Positions 3,088 through 15,660 of a stretch of DNA of 15,660 nucleotides are shown here, in pieces. The stretch lies in the IMG/VR virus record IMGVR_UViG_3300010367_000170; one strand, given 5' to 3'. The notes below the pieces were generated by a model that did no database searches, had not been told where the DNA came from, and worked only from the letters and a program-made list of their open reading frames with translations. Made by a program: the position numbers and the translations under genes. The DNA comes from a virus (lineage: Duplodnaviria; Heunggongvirae; Uroviricota; Caudoviricetes). Positions within the stretch are counted from its first letter, which is position 1. Every line of letters begins with the position of its first letter.

Positions 3088-3159
3088 ATGCGTGGCCCGG
3101 AGTTGAACCGGGATCTCCGCCCTTCCGGACGGTGCTCTGACCCGTTGAGCTACCTCGCC
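3088..3159 (-). ncRNA. tRNA-like RNA or pseudo-tRNA with no 7-nt anticodon loop (GGAA tetraloop instead)
   Basis: D-arm TAGCTCAACGGGTCAGAGC and T-arm CCCGG-TTCAACT-CCGGG are canonical. The anticodon arm is CCGTCC-GGAA-GGGCGG (16 nt, not 17). The acceptor GGCGAGG/CCACGCA has two mismatches. Ends 2 nt from tRNA-Ala. Confidence 0.7.
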
Positions 3160-6799: not shown

Positions 6800-8479
6800 C
6801 TAGCCATCTTGACCCCTTCCCGGGCCGGGGAGCTGCTTCAGAGCCTGCTTCCGCCTAGCCCTGTACGCCTTGTCCCAAGAAGCTGCGAGAGCCCGCGTAT
6901 CACTCTCGTACGCGGTTTCCTTCTCACCCTGAGGCAAACCCACATTCGCTGGGCCTCCGGGCCGCACCGAAGGCGACATCTTCGCACCCGGTTTCAAATC
7001 CGGAACCGGAGCGATCAAACCAGCCTTCACCGCAGCCTGCATAGCCGCATCCGAACCCCACGGAGAAGGCTCCTCCGCAGGCTCCGGCAAACCAGGCACA
7101 TACCCGTTCACCCCGGCAGCCGTCAACGGCGCAGCCTTGTTCGCCACCGACGCCCGCGACATAGCCTCCATGTCGTCCCAAGCAACAATGCCCTGACGAG
7201 TCTCGAAGACGTTGATGTCACCGCCGTCAACCGGAGGCTTACCCAGCTCAGCCCGGTAATCGTTCAAGCTGTAAGCGCCGGTCTTCAACCGGGTCTCCCG
7301 CACCTGCTCCACCGTCACCGAATCCCGGAAGTCCACCTCAGCGAACTCCAGATGCCAGCCGACAATGCCGAAACCCTGCTGAACCAGGTGGAAGTTCAAC
7401 TTCTCCAACAACAAGTTGGCGATCGGGATGACCGTGTTCACCTGGAACGACTTGTTCTGGGCCTCACCCGAACCGCCACCGATGTTGCCGGTCTCGATGA
7501 TCCCCACCTTGGAGGGGGGAACCCCGAACGAGGCGATGATCTGATCCCGCAGAACACGCTCCGCATCCAGGTAGTCCGTGACCTTGCGTGGATCCAACAC
7601 CTGCACCGCGCCGCCACCGGAGGTGATCAGCGGGTTGCCGACAGCCTTCGGGCCCAGGTTGTACACCTGGTACTGCTCACGCCACCGCTGAATGTCGGTG
7701 TCCTCGTAATGCGCCAGATCCACGTGCACCCGTGGCGGGTCGCCTCGCCGGAACGTCTCCTGGATCGTGGCCATGGTGAAGATCCACGCCGTGGTAGGCA
7801 ACAGGGCAAGCTGAGCCGGGCTGACCCCGTACAGCCCTCCGCGCGGAGCGTCCAACGAAATGTGGATCACGTCTTCGGTGTCAAAATGCGCCTGCCGCAG
7901 CCCATCCACATCCTGCCGATACCCGGCAACCTCGCCGTGAGAATCCGCCATCACCGTCATCGTCGTCGAATCCAGCAGATACAACGCCACCGGCTCACCC
8001 AGCAGGCGAACAACCTCAATGTAGGAGTCACCGAACAGCATCAAATCGGTGATCACGTTCCGGAGCAGCTGGATGAAGTCTTCCGTCGGGTTGGTGAACC
8101 GCATCAGCCTGCGCAGCCGCAACACCTCCGGCGGCTCCTCCGGGACCTCGTCCTCGGGGATAGCGTCATCCGGGATGACTTCCAGACCGCCCGCCGTCAC
8201 CGTGCGGGCGATCACACCGATAGCAGCGGACATCCACGTGCACGTGTTGTAGGCGTCGTGGAGGTGCTGCAACAACTGCTGACGCTCCGCTGACGCCGCC
8301 ATCTGAGCCGAAGGCATCTCGGAGGTGAGAGGCACACCGAACTCGAAGCCTCGACGCCGGATCTGCTGCGCCGTGTACTCAGGTGTCAGAGCCTGCGCTG
8401 TCGGTGTCTTCGTGGTGGCTTCCACAACGGCCGGAGGGTCAGGCCGGAACAGGCGTGCCAGGGCGTTGCCGACTCCCAT
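6800..8479 (-). CDS. Phage portal protein
   Basis: 559 aa, downstream of terL, GGAGG RBS. Portal-like motifs: LMLFGDSY, VIHISLDAP...YGVSP, IIASFGVPPSKVGI, SLNDYRAELGKPPV. Confidence 0.93.
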   Translation of the reverse strand: MGVGNALARLFRPDPPAVVEATTKTPTAQALTPEYTAQQIRRRGFEFGVPLTSEMPSAQMAASAERQQLLQHLHDAYNTCTWMSAAIGVIARTVTAGGLEVIPDDAIPEDEVPEEPPEVLRLRRLMRFTNPTEDFIQLLRNVITDLMLFGDSYIEVVRLLGEPVALYLLDSTTMTVMADSHGEVAGYRQDVDGLRQAHFDTEDVIHISLDAPRGGLYGVSPAQLALLPTTAWIFTMATIQETFRRGDPPRVHVDLAHYEDTDIQRWREQYQVYNLGPKAVGNPLITSGGGAVQVLDPRKVTDYLDAERVLRDQIIASFGVPPSKVGIIETGNIGGGSGEAQNKSFQVNTVIPIANLLLEKLNFHLVQQGFGIVGWHLEFAEVDFRDSVTVEQVRETRLKTGAYSLNDYRAELGKPPVDGGDINVFETRQGIVAWDDMEAMSRASVANKAAPLTAAGVNGYVPGLPEPAEEPSPWGSDAAMQAAVKAGLIAPVPDLKPGAKMSPSVRPGGPANVGLPQGEKETAYESDTRALAASWDKAYRARRKQALKQLPGPGRGQDG

Positions 8480-11177: not shown

Positions 11178-11570
11178 TTAGGTGATTTCTAGTAGGTCGA
11201 TTTGTTTCACCGGGACTTCGGGGTTGTCGGTGATTTTGATCCAGACGTTGTAGGTTCCGGCGGTGAGCGGTACTCCGCTGTTGGCTGGGCCTACGAGGAT
11301 TTGGGCGAGGTAGGTGTTGGTGCCGGTGGTTGCCCAGGTGCCGGTGTGCCAGTCGGTGTTGGCGGGGTTGGCGTTGGCGGGTTGTGGCATGAATGCGAAC
11401 GCTACGGGGTCGGCGGTGGGGTTGTAGGGGAGTCCTCCGACGATGGCTTGTACGGGGTAGGGCAGGTTTTCGGTGTTTAGGGTGCTGCGGGTGACCATTT
11501 GGGTTCCGGGGTTGGTGTTGATACGCCAGTTGGTGGCGGCTGGTCCGATGGTGAACACGGGGTTGGTCAC
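11178..11570 (-). CDS. 130-aa beta-sandwich hypothetical protein (possible BppU-N-like structural adaptor)
   Basis: GTGA overlap with the upstream gene. I recall W-x-TG-x-W...ILVGP...L-x-AG-x-Y-x-VW-x-KITD-x-PE-x-PV as a recurrent Ig-like pattern in actinophage virion proteins. Confidence 0.6.
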   Translation of the reverse strand: MTNPVFTIGPAATNWRINTNPGTQMVTRSTLNTENLPYPVQAIVGGLPYNPTADPVAFAFMPQPANANPANTDWHTGTWATTGTNTYLAQILVGPANSGVPLTAGTYNVWIKITDNPEVPVKQIDLLEIT

Positions 11571-12079
11571 GTTGCGAGTCCTGGGTTCCCGGTGGCGGCG
11601 GGGATGGGGGTGGCACGGTTTGCGAGGTCTGCGGGGGTGACTGCGGCGGGGGATTCACGTCCGCAGTTCCAGTCGAGTCCGGCTGCTTCGCCGCAGGTGG
11701 CTACGAGCTGGGAGCAGATCATGGCTTTTTCGTTGTCTGCTGCGCGGATGAGCCAGTGCCAGTTGATGCCTAGGGCGTGGAGGGATAGGCGTGCGATGTC
11801 GAGCCAGCCGTATGGGGTGCCGATGAGGGTTTCAGCTTTGGCGATGGCGCGTTGTTGTTGTTCGGGGGTGAGGGTGTCTGGGGCGTAGAGGATGGTGTCG
11901 GTGCCGTAGGCGGTGAGGTTGGAGCGGCGTGCGCCTCCGGGTGCGCCTTCGATGATGCTGCCGTGGGTGTCGGTGATGAGGACGACGTGGTTGTACTTGG
12001 AGCGGGTGCCGATGCGGATGAGCCATCCGTAGAAGCCGCCGGTGCGTATGCAGGCGTAGGTTCCTGGCTGAGGGGTCAT
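11567..12079 (-). CDS. Permuted papain-like (YiiX/YebB-type NlpC/P60) amidase/peptidase, 170 aa
   Basis: Catalytic His before Cys: YNHVVL...IGTPYGW...MICSQLVA...VTPADL, the YiiX/YebB signature order. Start reassigned to ATG 12079 because the longer ORF runs into a promoter module. Confidence 0.82.
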   Translation of the reverse strand: MTPQPGTYACIRTGGFYGWLIRIGTRSKYNHVVLITDTHGSIIEGAPGGARRSNLTAYGTDTILYAPDTLTPEQQQRAIAKAETLIGTPYGWLDIARLSLHALGINWHWLIRAADNEKAMICSQLVATCGEAAGLDWNCGRESPAAVTPADLANRATPIPAATGNPGLAT

Positions 12080-12103
12080 GGTGTTTTCCCAGTTCGAAGG
12101 GGC

Positions 12104-12132
12104 TTTACTCCGCTTAGCAATTCCAGTAGGCT
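12104..12132 (+). promoter_or_regulatory. Cassette promoter P1 (sigma70/HrdB type)
   Basis: TTTACT-N17-TAGGCT, with GCTTAGC at 12112-12118 and ACCGGAGGAG RBS at 12153-12162. Confidence 0.8.
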
Positions 12133-12168
12133 TGCCCCGTAAGCCAAACCGCACCGGAGGAGAAGCCG

Positions 12169-12417
12169 ATGAACACCGTCACCGTCCCCAACAAGCTGAT
12201 GAAGATCATCGCTGACCTGCCGTGGATCGCTGACGCCGAGATCACCCGGAACGGTTCGAAAACCTCCATCACCGCCACCGACACCGCCCTGAAGACCGTC
12301 GGCAGCTACCTGCGCAGACTGGCCCGCGACGTCATGAACTCCCGCAACAGCGTCCCCAGCCACGGTTTCACCGCCTCCCAGCTGGAGCGGTTCGGCAAGA
12401 AGACGTTCGGCGGCTGA
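12169..12417 (+). CDS. 82-aa hypothetical protein (single antisense cassette)
   Basis: Has its own promoter, ACCGGAGGAG RBS 6 nt upstream, and a terminator 14 nt after the stop. Confidence 0.85.
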   Translation: MNTVTVPNKLMKIIADLPWIADAEITRNGSKTSITATDTALKTVGSYLRRLARDVMNSRNSVPSHGFTASQLERFGKKTFGG

Positions 12418-12431
12418 CGCGCCACACCAGA

Positions 12432-12459
12432 AAGCCCCCGGGAACGTTCCCGGGGGCTT
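12432..12459. terminator. Bidirectional terminator between convergent genes
   Basis: Perfect 28-bp palindrome AAGCCCCCGGGAACGTTCCCGGGGGCTT between the stops at 12417 (+) and 12469 (-). Confidence 0.85.
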
Positions 12460-12468
12460 CGCTGTGTC

Positions 12469-12669
12469 CTACCCCAGGACGCCTTCCCGTACGGCGCAGA
12501 GCATGGCGTCGGTGTGGACAGCGAACACAACGTTGTGGAACGGGTCCTTGAACAGGACGAACTTGCCGTCCTGCTGGAAGTAGCTGGCGTTGACGCCCAC
12601 TACGCTCTCCCCGCCGGACTGGGCGTATGTGACGAGGAAACGGAACGTCGGCAGCAGGTCGTTTGTCAT
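12469..12669 (-). CDS. 66-aa hypothetical protein downstream of tRNA-Met
   Basis: AGGAAG RBS; beta-rich sequence; fills the gap between the tRNA and the terminator. Confidence 0.65.
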   Translation of the reverse strand: MTNDLLPTFRFLVTYAQSGGESVVGVNASYFQQDGKFVLFKDPFHNVVFAVHTDAMLCAVREGVLG

Positions 12670-12681
12670 GGTCTTCCTGGC

Positions 12682-12705
12682 GGTGTTGGTGTTGGTGTTG
12701 GTGTT
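12682..12705. repeat. Short tandem repeat (GGTGTT)x4
   Basis: Four exact copies between the tRNA-Met 3' end and the RBS of 12469..12669. Confidence 0.9.
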
Positions 12706-12709
12706 TCTG

Positions 12710-12787
12710 TGGTAGCCGGAACGGGATTCGAACCCGTGACCTTCAGCTTATGAGGCTGACGAGCTGACCGAACTGCTCTATCCGGCG
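12710..12787 (-). tRNA. tRNA-Met(CAT) with encoded CCA; initiator-like acceptor and D-arm, non-initiator anticodon stem
   Basis: CGCCGGA/TCCGGCT acceptor (C1xU72 mismatch), A73, CCA; D-stem GAGC/GCTC; anticodon arm TCAGC-CTCATAA-GCTGA; T-arm ACGGG-TTCGAAT-CCCGT. Confidence 0.92.
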
Positions 12788-12879
12788 CCGGTGGGATGCC
12801 GCCCTTGAGGCGTGGTTGGCGATCGTCCTTCACTGTAGCGGCACTGGTGTCAAGTTGGGAAGTTCCATGTCGGATGGGC

Positions 12880-12908
12880 TTTACTCCGCTTAGCGTTTCC
12901 AGTAGAGT
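12880..12908 (+). promoter_or_regulatory. Cassette promoter P2
   Basis: TTTACT-N17-TAGAGT; GCTTAGC at 12888-12894; ACCGGAGGAG at 12930-12939. Confidence 0.82.
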
Positions 12909-12945
12909 TGGCCCTGCCAACAGAGACAAACCGGAGGAGAAGACG

Positions 12946-13149
12946 ATGGACATCACCCTCAGCACCCGACGCGGACTCCCCGGACACGCCCGAGTCCACG
13001 TTGACGGCAAGCAGGTCGGACTGGTGTCTCGCGAGCCCAACGGCTGGACCTACGCCATTTACATCCCCGGTGAGCAGCAGCCCCTCTATTCCAACGAGTT
13101 CTTCGCCAACCGCGACATGGCAGTCAAAGCCCTGACCCAGATGATCTGA
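12946..13149 (+). CDS. 67-aa hypothetical protein
   Basis: Start reassigned to ATG 12946, 6 nt after ACCGGAGGAG (MDITLSTRRG...ALTQMI). Confidence 0.82.
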   Translation: MDITLSTRRGLPGHARVHVDGKQVGLVSREPNGWTYAIYIPGEQQPLYSNEFFANRDMAVKALTQMI

Positions 13150-13166
13150 CCGGAGGAGAAACCCGC

Positions 13167-13379
13167 GTGAACCGCCAGGACTACAAGGAAGCCGCTGAGA
13201 AGCTGCTGAAGAAGGCTGAAAGCGACATCGATGGGGGCTACACGAACCCTAAGTTTGAGGCGTACACAAGCATCGCCCGCGTCTACGCCATGCTGGCCGC
13301 GCTGCCGGAAGAGCGGGGCCACCCCGACGTGCCGCAGCGCCCCATTGGCCCTGGCGTCTCTGACCGTATTGACGGCTAG
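13167..13379 (+). CDS. 70-aa helical hypothetical protein
   Basis: GTG start 8 nt after ACCGGAGGAG (13149-13158), which overlaps the upstream stop; second gene of the P2 unit. Confidence 0.78.
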   Translation: MNRQDYKEAAEKLLKKAESDIDGGYTNPKFEAYTSIARVYAMLAALPEERGHPDVPQRPIGPGVSDRIDG

Positions 13380-13392
13380 CGGTTCGACTGAC

Positions 13393-13423
13393 AGCCCCTG
13401 GGACTTTACAGGTCCCGGGGGCT
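13393..13423 (+). terminator. Cassette hairpin H3
   Basis: AGCCCCTGGGAC-TTTACAG-GTCCCGGGGGCT (12 bp, one G:U), followed by TTAC. Confidence 0.8.
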
Positions 13424-13451
13424 TTACTCTGCTTAGCGATTGCACTATGGT
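13423..13451 (+). promoter_or_regulatory. Cassette promoter P3
   Basis: TTTACT-N17-TATGGT; GCTTAGC at 13431-13437; CCCGGAGGAG at 13478-13487. Confidence 0.82.
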
Positions 13452-13493
13452 TGTCCTCAGCACCAAAACCACCACAACCCGGAGGAGAACACC

Positions 13494-14213
13494 ATGAAGC
13501 TCGCAGCCGTCCGTGACCGCCAGGGCAACATCCGCGTCCACGCCGCCACCTGCGCCGACGTCAACCGCGAGGTCAAGAAGTTCCGTGACGGCGACGCCTA
13601 CACCGGCGAGTTCGCCAGCCGCACCGAGTTCAACCAGGACTGGTGGGGCGAAGTGGCCGCTGACCACTACGCGGAGGGCACCCCGGAGTGGGAGAAGGAG
13701 TGCGCGGTCAACGGCTCCATGGGAACCCTGTTCCTCCCCTGCTGCTCGGACCTCCCGGAAGACGTGGAGCCGGAGCCGACCAAGCGCACCGCGTACCGCT
13801 CGCTGCGGACCAAGACGATCCACACCCACTCCTGCCCCGCCGTCGCCGCGATGCTGACGAAGGCAACCGGCGAGACCCTGCCGAAGCCGTGGGCTGCCTA
13901 CGACCCGAACCTGGCGTTGGAGGACGTCGCCGCGCACCCGGAGTGGGACTGCTCCCGCTGCTCCCGTATCCGGCGCGGAGAGCAGGCTGCTGCCCGCTCG
14001 CAGGCGAAGGCGGAGCCGCAAGGCTACTTCTCCGCTGCGGCGAAGGTGGCGCACACGGCGCAGTGCCCGTCGATGAAGGCTGCGGCGTCCGGGAAGCTGC
14101 ACATACCGCTGATGAAGACCGGGTTCAAGGCGCTGTCGGCGCTGCTGAGGATGATCGACACCGGCGAGGCGAAGGAGTGCCTGAGCTGCAAGAAGATCCG
14201 CCACTCGCACTGA
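13494..14213 (+). CDS. 239-aa protein with three H-x3-C...C-x(0-2)-C putative zinc-binding repeats
   Basis: Start reassigned to ATG 13494 after the cassette RBS. Repeats: VHAATC...PCC, IHTHSC...CSRC, AHTAQC...CLSC. Confidence 0.85.
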   Translation: MKLAAVRDRQGNIRVHAATCADVNREVKKFRDGDAYTGEFASRTEFNQDWWGEVAADHYAEGTPEWEKECAVNGSMGTLFLPCCSDLPEDVEPEPTKRTAYRSLRTKTIHTHSCPAVAAMLTKATGETLPKPWAAYDPNLALEDVAAHPEWDCSRCSRIRRGEQAAARSQAKAEPQGYFSAAAKVAHTAQCPSMKAAASGKLHIPLMKTGFKALSALLRMIDTGEAKECLSCKKIRHSH

Positions 14214-14225
14214 TGTCTCGACTGC

Positions 14226-14258
14226 AAGCCCCTACGACTTCACAGGTCGTAGGGGCTT
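14226..14258 (+). terminator. Cassette hairpin H4
   Basis: Perfect 13-bp stem AAGCCCCTACGAC-TTCACAG-GTCGTAGGGGCTT, followed by TCTTTT. Confidence 0.85.
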
Positions 14259-14285
14259 TCTTTTGCTTAGCGATTCCAGTATGGT
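14257..14285 (+). promoter_or_regulatory. Cassette promoter P4
   Basis: TTTCTT-N17-TATGGT; GCTTAGC at 14265-14271; ACCGGAGGAG at 14306-14315. Confidence 0.78.
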
Positions 14286-14321
14286 TGAGGTAACAACAGC
14301 GGCACACCGGAGGAGACCGAA

Positions 14322-14786
14322 ATGAGCACCTACTCGCAGGCGAGGATCAACCGGGGCCAGTCCGTTCACTCCGTCCTGCTGGACGACGAAGGTACTGTCT
14401 GCGGAACCCGCTGCATGTCGGAAGGCATCTACGGAACGCGGACCGCCTACCGCAAGACCTCCAGCCCGGTAAGCTGCAAGAAGTGCCTGAAGATCATTGA
14501 GGGATCGGAGCAGGCCCAGACCGGCCGTCCGGCGCACGGAACCATTGAGGCGCCCTCCGGAGTGGCCGTGGAAATCTTCGAAACCTTTGACCTGACGATT
14601 CTGGTGAAGATCACCGTGACGGCGGGAACGAGCCTGGGCCACGCTTGGCTGCGAGCCGACAACGCGGCGCGGGCGTGGGCCAAGAAGCACGGCGCTGGCG
14701 CAACGCTGGTGCGCGAGTCCGCAAAGTCGGACCAGCTGCCCGGGGGTGGCGTGGAGCACATGTACAAGTACCTCTGGTCCGTCTGA
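14322..14786 (+). CDS. 154-aa protein: N-terminal zinc-finger-like domain plus a C-terminal WLRADNAA domain
   Basis: Cassette RBS; VH...VCG...VSCKKC at the N-terminus; C-terminal domain shared with 14899..15519. Confidence 0.85.
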   Translation: MSTYSQARINRGQSVHSVLLDDEGTVCGTRCMSEGIYGTRTAYRKTSSPVSCKKCLKIIEGSEQAQTGRPAHGTIEAPSGVAVEIFETFDLTILVKITVTAGTSLGHAWLRADNAARAWAKKHGAGATLVRESAKSDQLPGGGVEHMYKYLWSV

Positions 14787-14797
14787 CGTCTCGGCTG

Positions 14798-14831
14798 AAG
14801 CCCTTCCCACCTTCACAGGTCGGAGGGGCTT
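14798..14831 (+). terminator. Cassette hairpin H5
   Basis: AAGCCCTTCCCACC-TTCACA-GGTCGGAGGGGCTT (one C-C mismatch, one G:U). Confidence 0.8.
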
Positions 14832-14858
14832 TACGTCGCTTAGCGATTAGGCTATAGT
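14830..14858 (+). promoter_or_regulatory. Cassette promoter P5
   Basis: TTTACG-N17-TATAGT; GCTTAGC at 14838-14844; ACCGGAGGAG at 14883-14892. Confidence 0.82.
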
Positions 14859-14898
14859 TGGTCTTGCCAACAGCGACACCACACCGGAGGAGAGAACG

Positions 14899-15519
14899 AT
14901 GAACAAGAACCAGATAACCAAGGCGCAGGGCAAGGTCTCCTACAAGATCAACACCAGCCTCACCTCCGCGCTGATCCTGGACACCACCGCCCTCTACACC
15001 GAGCGCACCTCCTGGGGCCAGCCCAACCGCTACTCCAAGTCCCCCCTGAGCGCCTGCAAGCAGGACAGGCTGGGCTGCGTCACCGTCGGCTGGCTGGTCC
15101 TCCACGTCTCCGCCTACGGCTACACCGCCGACATACAGGAGCGCACCGCCAAGGCTGAGGCGTTCATCGAGAGCTTCACCGGCACCGCTGCCGACGTCCT
15201 GGACGAGAAGGGCAACGTTCGACGCGACGTGGTTCCGGCGGACGTGAACGTAACCCTGGTCAACAACCGGAAGCTGTCCGAGCGGCAAGCCAAGCCGGAG
15301 GCTGACGGCCCGGTCCGCACCCAGGACGCCGGTGACGGCGTGAAGGTCGTGGAGGACGCGCGGCTGGTGGTGCGGGTGGCCGTCTCCGAGGGGACTTCCT
15401 ACCCGTGGCTGCGGGCCGACAACGCCGCCAAGGCGTACGCGAAGGAGTTCGGGAACGGCTCCAAGCTGGTCCGCAAGTCGGCTGCGAACGGCGTGTACGT
15501 CTACAACTGGGCCGCCTGA
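14899..15519 (+). CDS. 206-aa protein with a C-terminal WLRADNAA domain
   Basis: Cassette RBS; the C-terminal ~55 aa are paralogous to those of 14322..14786; the N-terminus is unrelated. Confidence 0.85.
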   Translation: MNKNQITKAQGKVSYKINTSLTSALILDTTALYTERTSWGQPNRYSKSPLSACKQDRLGCVTVGWLVLHVSAYGYTADIQERTAKAEAFIESFTGTAADVLDEKGNVRRDVVPADVNVTLVNNRKLSERQAKPEADGPVRTQDAGDGVKVVEDARLVVRVAVSEGTSYPWLRADNAAKAYAKEFGNGSKLVRKSAANGVYVYNWAA

Positions 15520-15530
15520 CGTCTCCACTG

Positions 15531-15566
15531 AAAGCCCTCCTGGTCTTCACAGGCCGGGAGGGCTTT
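15531..15566 (+). terminator. Cassette hairpin H6
   Basis: AAAGCCCTCCTGGTC-TTCACA-GGCCGGGAGGGCTTT (15 bp, two G:U). Confidence 0.82.
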
Positions 15567-15592
15567 CCTTTGCTTAGCGTTACCAGTATGGT
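15564..15592 (+). promoter_or_regulatory. Cassette promoter P6
   Basis: TTTCCT-N17-TATGGT; GCTTAGC at 15572-15578; ACCGGAGGAG at 15612-15621. Confidence 0.78.
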
Positions 15593-15627
15593 TGACCTGT
15601 ACGCCACACCCACCGGAGGAGCCCCAA

Positions 15628-15660
15628 ATGGACACCAAGCCCACCTACACCAAGTTCCAC
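15628..15660 (+). CDS. Start of the next cassette gene (partial, MDTKPTYTKFH...)
   Basis: ATG 6 nt after ACCGGAGGAG; open to the window edge. Confidence 0.75.
   Translation, partial: MDTKPTYTKFH

Follow-up and report, generated by a model that had tools for sequence, protein, structure and literature searches.

Four GC-rich hairpins recur between small genes in a 15,660-nucleotide stretch of DNA from an uncultured virus (IMG/VR record IMGVR_UViG_3300010367_000170), referred to here at its full length as the window. A moderately probable reading is that these hairpins supply the terminator half of composite terminator/early-promoter modules, and that the sequence conserved at their apex is a -50 box belonging to the promoter. 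Each module spans about 100 nucleotides (nt). The hairpin stands in front, and its 3' arm and U-rich tail continue directly into a sigma70-type promoter. In this promoter an invariant GGGGC leads into a -35 hexamer of the form TTTACn, which is followed by 17 nt containing an invariant GCTTAGCG, a -10 hexamer of the form TAnnnT, and TG. Downstream of the -10, a conserved leader and a strong ribosome-binding site, CCGGAGGAG, precede the ATG of a small ORFan. The four modules with hairpins are composed as follows.

13393-13423, plus strand: putative terminator hairpin of module 1; apex TTTACAG at 13405-13411; -27 kcal/mol, z -4.7; 14 nt past the stop codon at 13377-13379.
13423-13451, plus strand: putative promoter of module 1; -35 TTTACT at 13423-13428; GCTTAGCG at 13431-13438; -10 TATGGT at 13446-13451.
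14226-14258, plus strand: putative terminator hairpin of module 2; apex TTCACAG at 14239-14245; -25.8 kcal/mol, z -7.0.
14257-14285, plus strand: putative promoter of module 2; -35 TTTCTT; GCTTAGCG at 14265-14272; -10 TATGGT at 14280-14285.
14796-14833, plus strand: putative terminator hairpin of module 3; apex TTCACAG at 14812-14818; one C-C mismatch; -24.8 kcal/mol.
14830-14858, plus strand: putative promoter of module 3; -35 TTTACG; GCTTAGCG at 14838-14845; -10 TATAGT.
15530-15567, plus strand: putative terminator hairpin of module 4; apex TTCACAG at 15546-15552; -32.3 kcal/mol, z -6.4.
15564-15592, plus strand: putative promoter of module 4; -35 TTTCCT; GCTTAGCG at 15572-15579; -10 TATGGT at 15587-15592.

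The preliminary description of this region had reported an apex of TTTACAG once and of TTCACAG three times, and this is exactly what is found, in both position and sequence. It had also listed mid-stems that differ and yet stay paired, and all four of these (TGG/CCG, with a T-G wobble, TAC/GTA, TCC/GGA and CCTGG/CCGGG) are correct. The octamer TTYACAGG occurs four times in the window against 0.67 expected, a count reached by none of 200 shuffles. Predicted RNA folds of the four hairpins range from -24.8 to -32.3 kcal/mol (z -4.6 to -7.0), and again no shuffle of 200 folds as well. The stems are 12-16 base pairs (bp) long. RNAfold closes the apex further, with a U-G or C-G pair and then a U-A pair, so that an open loop of only CAC, UAC or UCAC is left.

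Several features are those expected of intrinsic terminators. The hairpins are GC-rich, lie on the coding strand and begin 12-14 nt past stop codons, and in placement and pairing they look like a terminator or attenuator of the upstream gene. The T-tract after each stem had been described as short. Three T followed by mixed sequence are indeed present, but the tails become U-rich further on, with 4-7 U in the first 8 nt as compared to a canonical U-tract of 7-9 nt. This content matches or exceeds that of the stand-alone terminators of the same phage. A short T-tract is normal for it rather than something special. Two of the four hairpins pass a simple terminator scan. Mycobacterial RNA polymerase is able to use terminators with imperfect U-tracts, with NusG helping (Czyz et al. 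2014, PMC3993855). The window hairpins resemble actinobacterial Rho-independent terminators in having a GC-rich stem just past a stop codon and a partial U-tract. They differ in having a tail that doubles as a -35 hexamer and a conserved box within the loop.

The phage DNA of the window is high in GC and includes five tRNA or tRNA-like genes and, on the minus strand, a portal gene (6800-8479). Small genes that have no Pfam match occupy the plus strand from 12.1 kb on, and each transcription unit has a conserved module copy ahead of it. No close relative was found among GenBank phages, in which the only DNA match to the module region is the tRNA-Met gene, and the portal protein is only 22-26% identical to those of known phages. 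A motif scan of IMG/VR recovered one complete relative with modules, G001 (IMGVR_UViG_3300045836_000108; 102,929 bp, with terminal repeats). Its coding DNA is 66-80% identical to that of the window, and it carries about 20 promoter copies. A scan of metagenome contigs added about ten more members of the lineage, all short contigs from soil, L095-L119 among them. Orthologues of the module 4 hairpin, for example, occur in G001 (58932-58967) and in L101, L108 and L111. The window, G001 and the soil contigs together supply the module set used below, which after removal of near-duplicates has 35 members, 17 with a stable hairpin and 18 without. Searching a collection of 185,579 species genomes gave single chance matches only, and no prophage or host copy of the module.

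Covariation of the stems, first noted among four hairpins, holds in a larger sample. When all 18 hairpins were aligned with MAFFT, the 5' arms fell out of register, so pairs were counted in two gap-free subsets of seven and eight sequences, which together represent 15 hairpin modules from several phages. In the subset of seven, 96.4% of cells are paired as compared to 85.6% in shuffles and 36-58% when partners are slid, and four pairs show two-sided changes. In the subset of eight, the corresponding values are 99.0%, 88.9% and 25-70%, with two-sided changes in five pairs. None of 500 shuffles reaches the observed value in either subset. Positions 5-12 from the base of the stem each display two to six standard pair types, and nearly all of their cells are paired. 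The stem cells are also biased by strand. About 26 G-U pairs fall on the plus strand versus one A-C, and in all four window hairpins the fold of the plus strand is more stable than that of the minus strand, by 1.3-6.5 kcal/mol. The stems are under selection to pair, and they are selected on the RNA strand.

This strand bias bears on the possibility that the hairpins are extruded as single-stranded DNA or as a cruciform, to act as an N4-type promoter or as a recombination substrate of the integron attC type. The region is a long DNA palindrome, and cassette order differs between relatives, as such a role might predict. Promoters of the N4 virion RNA polymerase have 5-7 bp stems and 3-nt loops and are read by a giant virion polymerase. 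The window hairpins share with them a conserved apex in a phage early region, but have stems of 12-16 bp whose G-U pairs become A-C mismatches on the other strand. They are also each backed by an ordinary -35/-10 promoter, and their motif occurs without any hairpin. The complete relative G001 has no giant open reading frame, its largest encoding 1147 amino acids. A search of its proteins for a T7-type RNA polymerase (PF00940) found no match, although the control for this search gave no signal. Neither a tyrosine recombinase (PF00589), as would be cognate to attC sites, nor a serine recombinase (PF00239) is matched in G001. These results from the complete relative speak against a recombinase or an N4-type interpretation, and we regard extrusion as extremely improbable.

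The apex motif is tied to the promoter in a manner that does not depend on the hairpin. The window contains six promoter copies, with the GGCTTTAC anchor at 12101, 12877, 13420, 14254, 14827 and 15561. The last four carry the hairpins described above, and the first two do not:

12086-12132, plus strand: putative hairpin-less promoter at the head of a divergent unit; TTCCCAG at 12086-12092 in the apex register; -35 at 12104-12109; -10 TAGGCT at 12127-12132.
12866-12908, plus strand: putative hairpin-less promoter after tRNA-Met; CATG at 12866-12869 in register (C-49, A-48); -35 at 12880-12885; -10 TAGAGT at 12903-12908.

The hairpin is absent where no co-directional gene lies upstream. The copy at 12101 diverges from a minus-strand gene and has no stable hairpin (-14.9 kcal/mol, in another fold), and the copy at 12877 follows the minus-strand tRNA-Met gene.

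When the -35 hexamer is numbered -35 to -30, the apex falls at -53 to -47, with a core of C-49, A-48 and G-47. Ten of the 18 hairpin-less promoters have CA at the apex offset, and eight have CAG at -49 to -47. At nearly all other offsets in the 40 nt upstream, CAG and CA[GT]G score 0-1. CA[GT]G is found at the apex offset in five of the 18, a number that no permutation of 5000 reached at any offset. The orthologues of 12866-12869 in L095, L108 and L117 read TCACAG or CCACAG, and the next eight bases differ at most positions. G001 provides a case in which the two halves are separated. The terminator at 58514 has the loop GTCCGC, and the promoter at 58564 keeps TTCCAG in register. Because the motif maintains its distance to the -35 in promoters that have no 5' arm, the proposal that a factor reads it as a loop is not supported.

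Terminators that stand apart from promoters offer the reverse comparison. The window itself has one such internal control for loop content:

12432-12459: putative stand-alone two-way terminator of the GCCC...GGGC type; loop GAACGTTC; no promoter after it.

Among terminators of this type, ACAG is in the loop of nine of the 13 that abut a promoter and of one of the 15 that stand alone (Fisher p = 0.001). The stand-alone terminators otherwise carry unrelated loops. Some hairpins that abut promoters also have other loops (GCGCATGT, CAT, TTCGT and GATATCTC, in four to five modules), which speaks against a strict requirement for one loop.

These counts make it quite unlikely that a protein such as an antiterminator, a processing nuclease or a termination-efficiency factor reads the loop of the RNA hairpin and turns each boundary into a switch. 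It is true that YACAG occupies the apex in 13 of the 17 non-redundant hairpin modules of the window's lineage, that the hairpin is a feature of the RNA strand as judged by its G-U bias, and that imperfect U-tracts leave room for regulated read-through. The single stand-alone terminator with CACAG in its loop (G001 24587-24628, minus strand) is likewise what a loop-reading protein would allow. However, the motif is in register even where the hairpin cannot form, it is missing from the other 14 stand-alone terminators, and most of the 7-mer is paired in the predicted folds, which leaves a loop of 3-4 nt. No alternative, antiterminator-like pairing is seen in the 5' flanks of the hairpins. A search of 11500-15660 against Rfam 15, at E values up to 1, matched tRNA-Met only, and the hairpins match none of its families. 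The boxB hairpin of the lambda nut sites, which had been offered as a parallel, is a 5-bp stem with a GNRA-like pentaloop. Like the window hairpins it has a conserved apex and resides in a phage early region, but stems of 12-16 bp with loops of CAC, UCAC or UAC are not of the boxB kind.

Comparison of orthologues shows where the constraint lies. The apex is more conserved than the mid-stem and remains unchanged in orthologues whose coding DNA is 66-80% identical, which is beyond what recent duplication would leave. Across eight orthologue sets C-49 and A-48 never change, whereas the number of changes per site is 4.2 for -46 to -41 and 5.9 for the 5' flank. In the orthologues of module 1 from L117 and L119 the stem is mostly lost (-10 to -13 kcal/mol) and TTCACAG is kept. 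In both (L117 975-1020; L119, minus strand, at about 1231), a near-direct copy of the 3' arm stands in place of the 5' arm, with GAAGGGCTT on both sides. This replacement abolishes the hairpin and retains the apex box and the promoter. The conserved apex is probably an upstream box of the promoter rather than an RNA loop signal, to judge from these comparisons.

Descent might also account for the apex, which in that case would have no function of its own. Modules would have spread from a common ancestor and been homogenized by recombination or gene conversion, and hairpin-less promoters would be decayed modules. Common ancestry of all modules is clear (63-77% identity over 78 nt), and identical 3'-arm variants, such as TTCGAAGGGGC, appear in non-orthologous modules, which implies exchange between modules. 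In a more distant relative, G002, a stem likewise runs into the -35, with a promoter of another family and with loops that vary. Yet conserved and variable blocks alternate every 6-8 nt, which is finer than is expected of conversion tracts. The positions from -46 to -41 are saturated with changes right next to a box that does not vary at C-49 and A-48, and the box persists in orthologues that have no stem. Common descent as the entire explanation is therefore unlikely, although it deserves more weight than the loop-reading protein does.

Assignment of the apex to the promoter has to contend with several observations that weigh against it. About half of the hairpin-less promoters have no box, most notably those at 84-93 kb of G001, and those that do have it could descend from hairpin modules that lost their 5' arm. 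Modules that share descent are not independent samples, so the p-values given above overstate the case. The copy at 12086-12092 shares sequence with the ribosome-binding region of the divergent gene, and its conservation may reflect this other constraint. The 7-nt box is only moderately A/T-rich and does not constitute a classical UP element. The G001 terminator with a CACAG loop and no adjoining promoter is also a counterexample. Only one of the six window promoters (module 3, 9 of 12) passes a strict scan whose consensus is that of E. coli. Finally, termination, initiation and the nature of whatever reads the box are all deduced from sequence alone. Taken as a whole, the preliminary interpretation is partly supported. 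The constraint on the apex is real, and the evidence places it at the level of the DNA and the promoter.

In the promoter half of the module, the -35 and -10 hexamers are 17 nt apart in all but two of the modules, which were selected by motif. Information content peaks at GGGCTTTAC, at GCTTAGCG (-27 to -20), at the TA of the -10 and at TTG. No match to sigma70 region 2 was found in the complete relative G001, and since the T7-type polymerase search described above also came up empty there, with its control silent, the host polymerase is likely to be the reader of this promoter.

Promoter spacer sequences are normally not conserved. In these modules the spacer box GCTTAGC(G) at -27 to -20 is invariant in the window (12112-12119, 12888-12895, 13431-13438, 14265-14272, 14838-14845 and 15572-15579), in G001 and in the soil contigs. 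With the C that precedes it, the box makes up a palindrome, CGCT-T-AGCG, and it may be an operator or a factor site. A likeness of TGCTTAG to the MotA box was considered and rejected, since the phage is not of the T4 type and the box has its centre near -24 instead of -30. The mRNA leader starts in one of two conserved forms, one with CGTAAGCCAAAC and the other with TTGG, then TGCCAACAG, and a small inverted repeat. Such leader starts are found at 12133-12150, 12909-12925 and 14859-14876 of the window and in many G001 copies.

Three other possible identities of the apex sequence were discarded. TTCACA is not the -35 of a second promoter, since no TAnnnT lies 16-18 nt downstream. It is not a CRP-type site either, as the TCACA half-site has no partner. 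The apex 7-mers fit the anticodon-loop pattern YU-NNN-RN, and TTTACAG, reverse-complemented, gives the anticodon loop of tRNA-Tyr from G001 (L083 9104-9187), but this resemblance was judged to be due to chance.

G002 is a further relative, with a portal 79% identical to that of the window. The GGCTTT-N5-GCTTAGC promoter was not found in G002 or in four IMG/VR fragments. Its place is taken by a different family, GGTTGACG-N2-GTTTAGGT, with sites at 11966 and 12339 of L075 (G002) and at 20418, 21058, 39235 and 97553 of G002, on the minus strand. The design is the same, in that the 3' arm of a terminator runs into, and includes, a TTGACG -35. Loops of the G002 hairpins vary (TTTCTTGT, ATTCTT, ATCAC and CTCGC).

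The modules cluster among small genes, with six promoters in a 3.5-kb part of the window and 14 between 55 and 66 kb of G001. The products of these genes have no Pfam match and at most correspond to PHROGs of unknown function. The window and G001 do not agree in the order of their cassettes or in how domains are combined. In the gene that begins at 14899, for example, the N-terminal part matches G001 56590-57006 and the C-terminal part matches 58636-58917 and 59786-60004. Such differences fit exchange at or near the repeated modules. Mosaicism is a general property of the cassette proteins encoded at 13494-14213, 14322-14786 and 14899-15519, parts of each of which match different G001 genes. 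A C-terminal domain is also common to the adjacent genes at 14322-14786 and 14899-15519 (72% DNA identity over 82 nt).

Two observations concern RNA genes elsewhere in the window. ARAGORN reports a tRNA-like gene with an undetermined two-base anticodon at 3088-3159 on the minus strand, adjoining genes for tRNA-Ala, tRNA-Pro and tRNA-Ser. Rfam 15 gives one sub-threshold small RNA match outside 11500-15660.

The closest described system is the promoter-early stem-loop (PeSL) of T4-like phages. Found on either side of ORFans in hyperplastic regions, PeSLs are conserved composites of a terminator and an early promoter through which modules are shuffled (Arbiol et al. 2010, PMC2839356; Comeau et al. 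2014, PMC4122927). As with PeSLs, the window modules are repeated and intergenic and combine a GC-rich stem-loop terminator with a sigma70-like early promoter, in four window copies and at least 17 non-redundant copies overall. Even the -35, TTTACW, is as in the PST/T4 pair. Copies of both systems cluster among small ORFans and are linked to differences in gene order and to indels between related phages. The modules described here are an actinophage-type variant in which stem and promoter overlap. Their lineage and host range are high-GC and actinophage-like rather than T4-like. In a PeSL an AT-rich stretch separates the stem from the -35, whereas in the window the 3' arm (GGGGC) and the U-tail overlap or abut the -35, and the only A/T-richer patch upstream of it is the hairpin apex. 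The window modules also have the additional invariant GCTTAGCG box in the spacer. Terminator activity, early promoter activity and mini-circles also characterize PeSLs, and of these, termination and promoter activity are predicted for the present modules from their sequences.

UP elements provide another point of comparison. The box at -53 to -47 is in the range of the distal UP subsite and travels with the promoter. Unlike an UP element, it is 7 nt long, has a core of C, A and G, and contains no A/T run. We know of no UP consensus that has been established for actinobacteria.

These observations suggest the following mechanism. In this uncultured virus, which is high-GC and actinophage-like, the module would mark the boundary of a small gene cassette. 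The transcript of the upstream gene would fold into the 12-16 bp GC stem, and transcription would stop or be attenuated in the U-rich tail. The same DNA would serve as a promoter for the host RNA polymerase, with the -35 in the tail, and transcription would restart there for the gene that follows. The upstream half of this promoter would consist of the -50 box, the invariant GGGGC and the tail. The apex box is most likely read as double-stranded DNA, and candidate readers are RNA polymerase itself, in an UP-like contact, or a host or phage factor. If the stem was built from sequence on both sides of the -50 box, this would place the box at the apex and leave the unconstrained bases from -46 to -41 free to covary with their partners. 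The repeated modules probably also act as patches of homology that shuffle cassettes, as in the T4-type PeSLs. A more elaborate version, in which one dedicated factor reads the apex twice, as duplex DNA at -50 to tune the promoter and as a nascent RNA loop to tune termination, is very unlikely. If true, it would couple transcription stop and restart at each cassette boundary during infection.

A conserved hairpin loop can stem from a DNA-level constraint imposed by an overlapping promoter and not from RNA recognition, and caution is warranted when such loops are interpreted. The approximately 35 natural promoter/terminator variants gathered here are candidate parts for use in actinobacteria. 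The proposed design is more compressed than that of PeSLs, since one stretch of DNA would function as stem arm, U-tract and -35 at once. If the modules operate as suggested, the PeSL concept of compact boundaries that insulate and shuffle genes would extend from T4-like phages of Gram-negative hosts to uncultured high-GC phages of soil.

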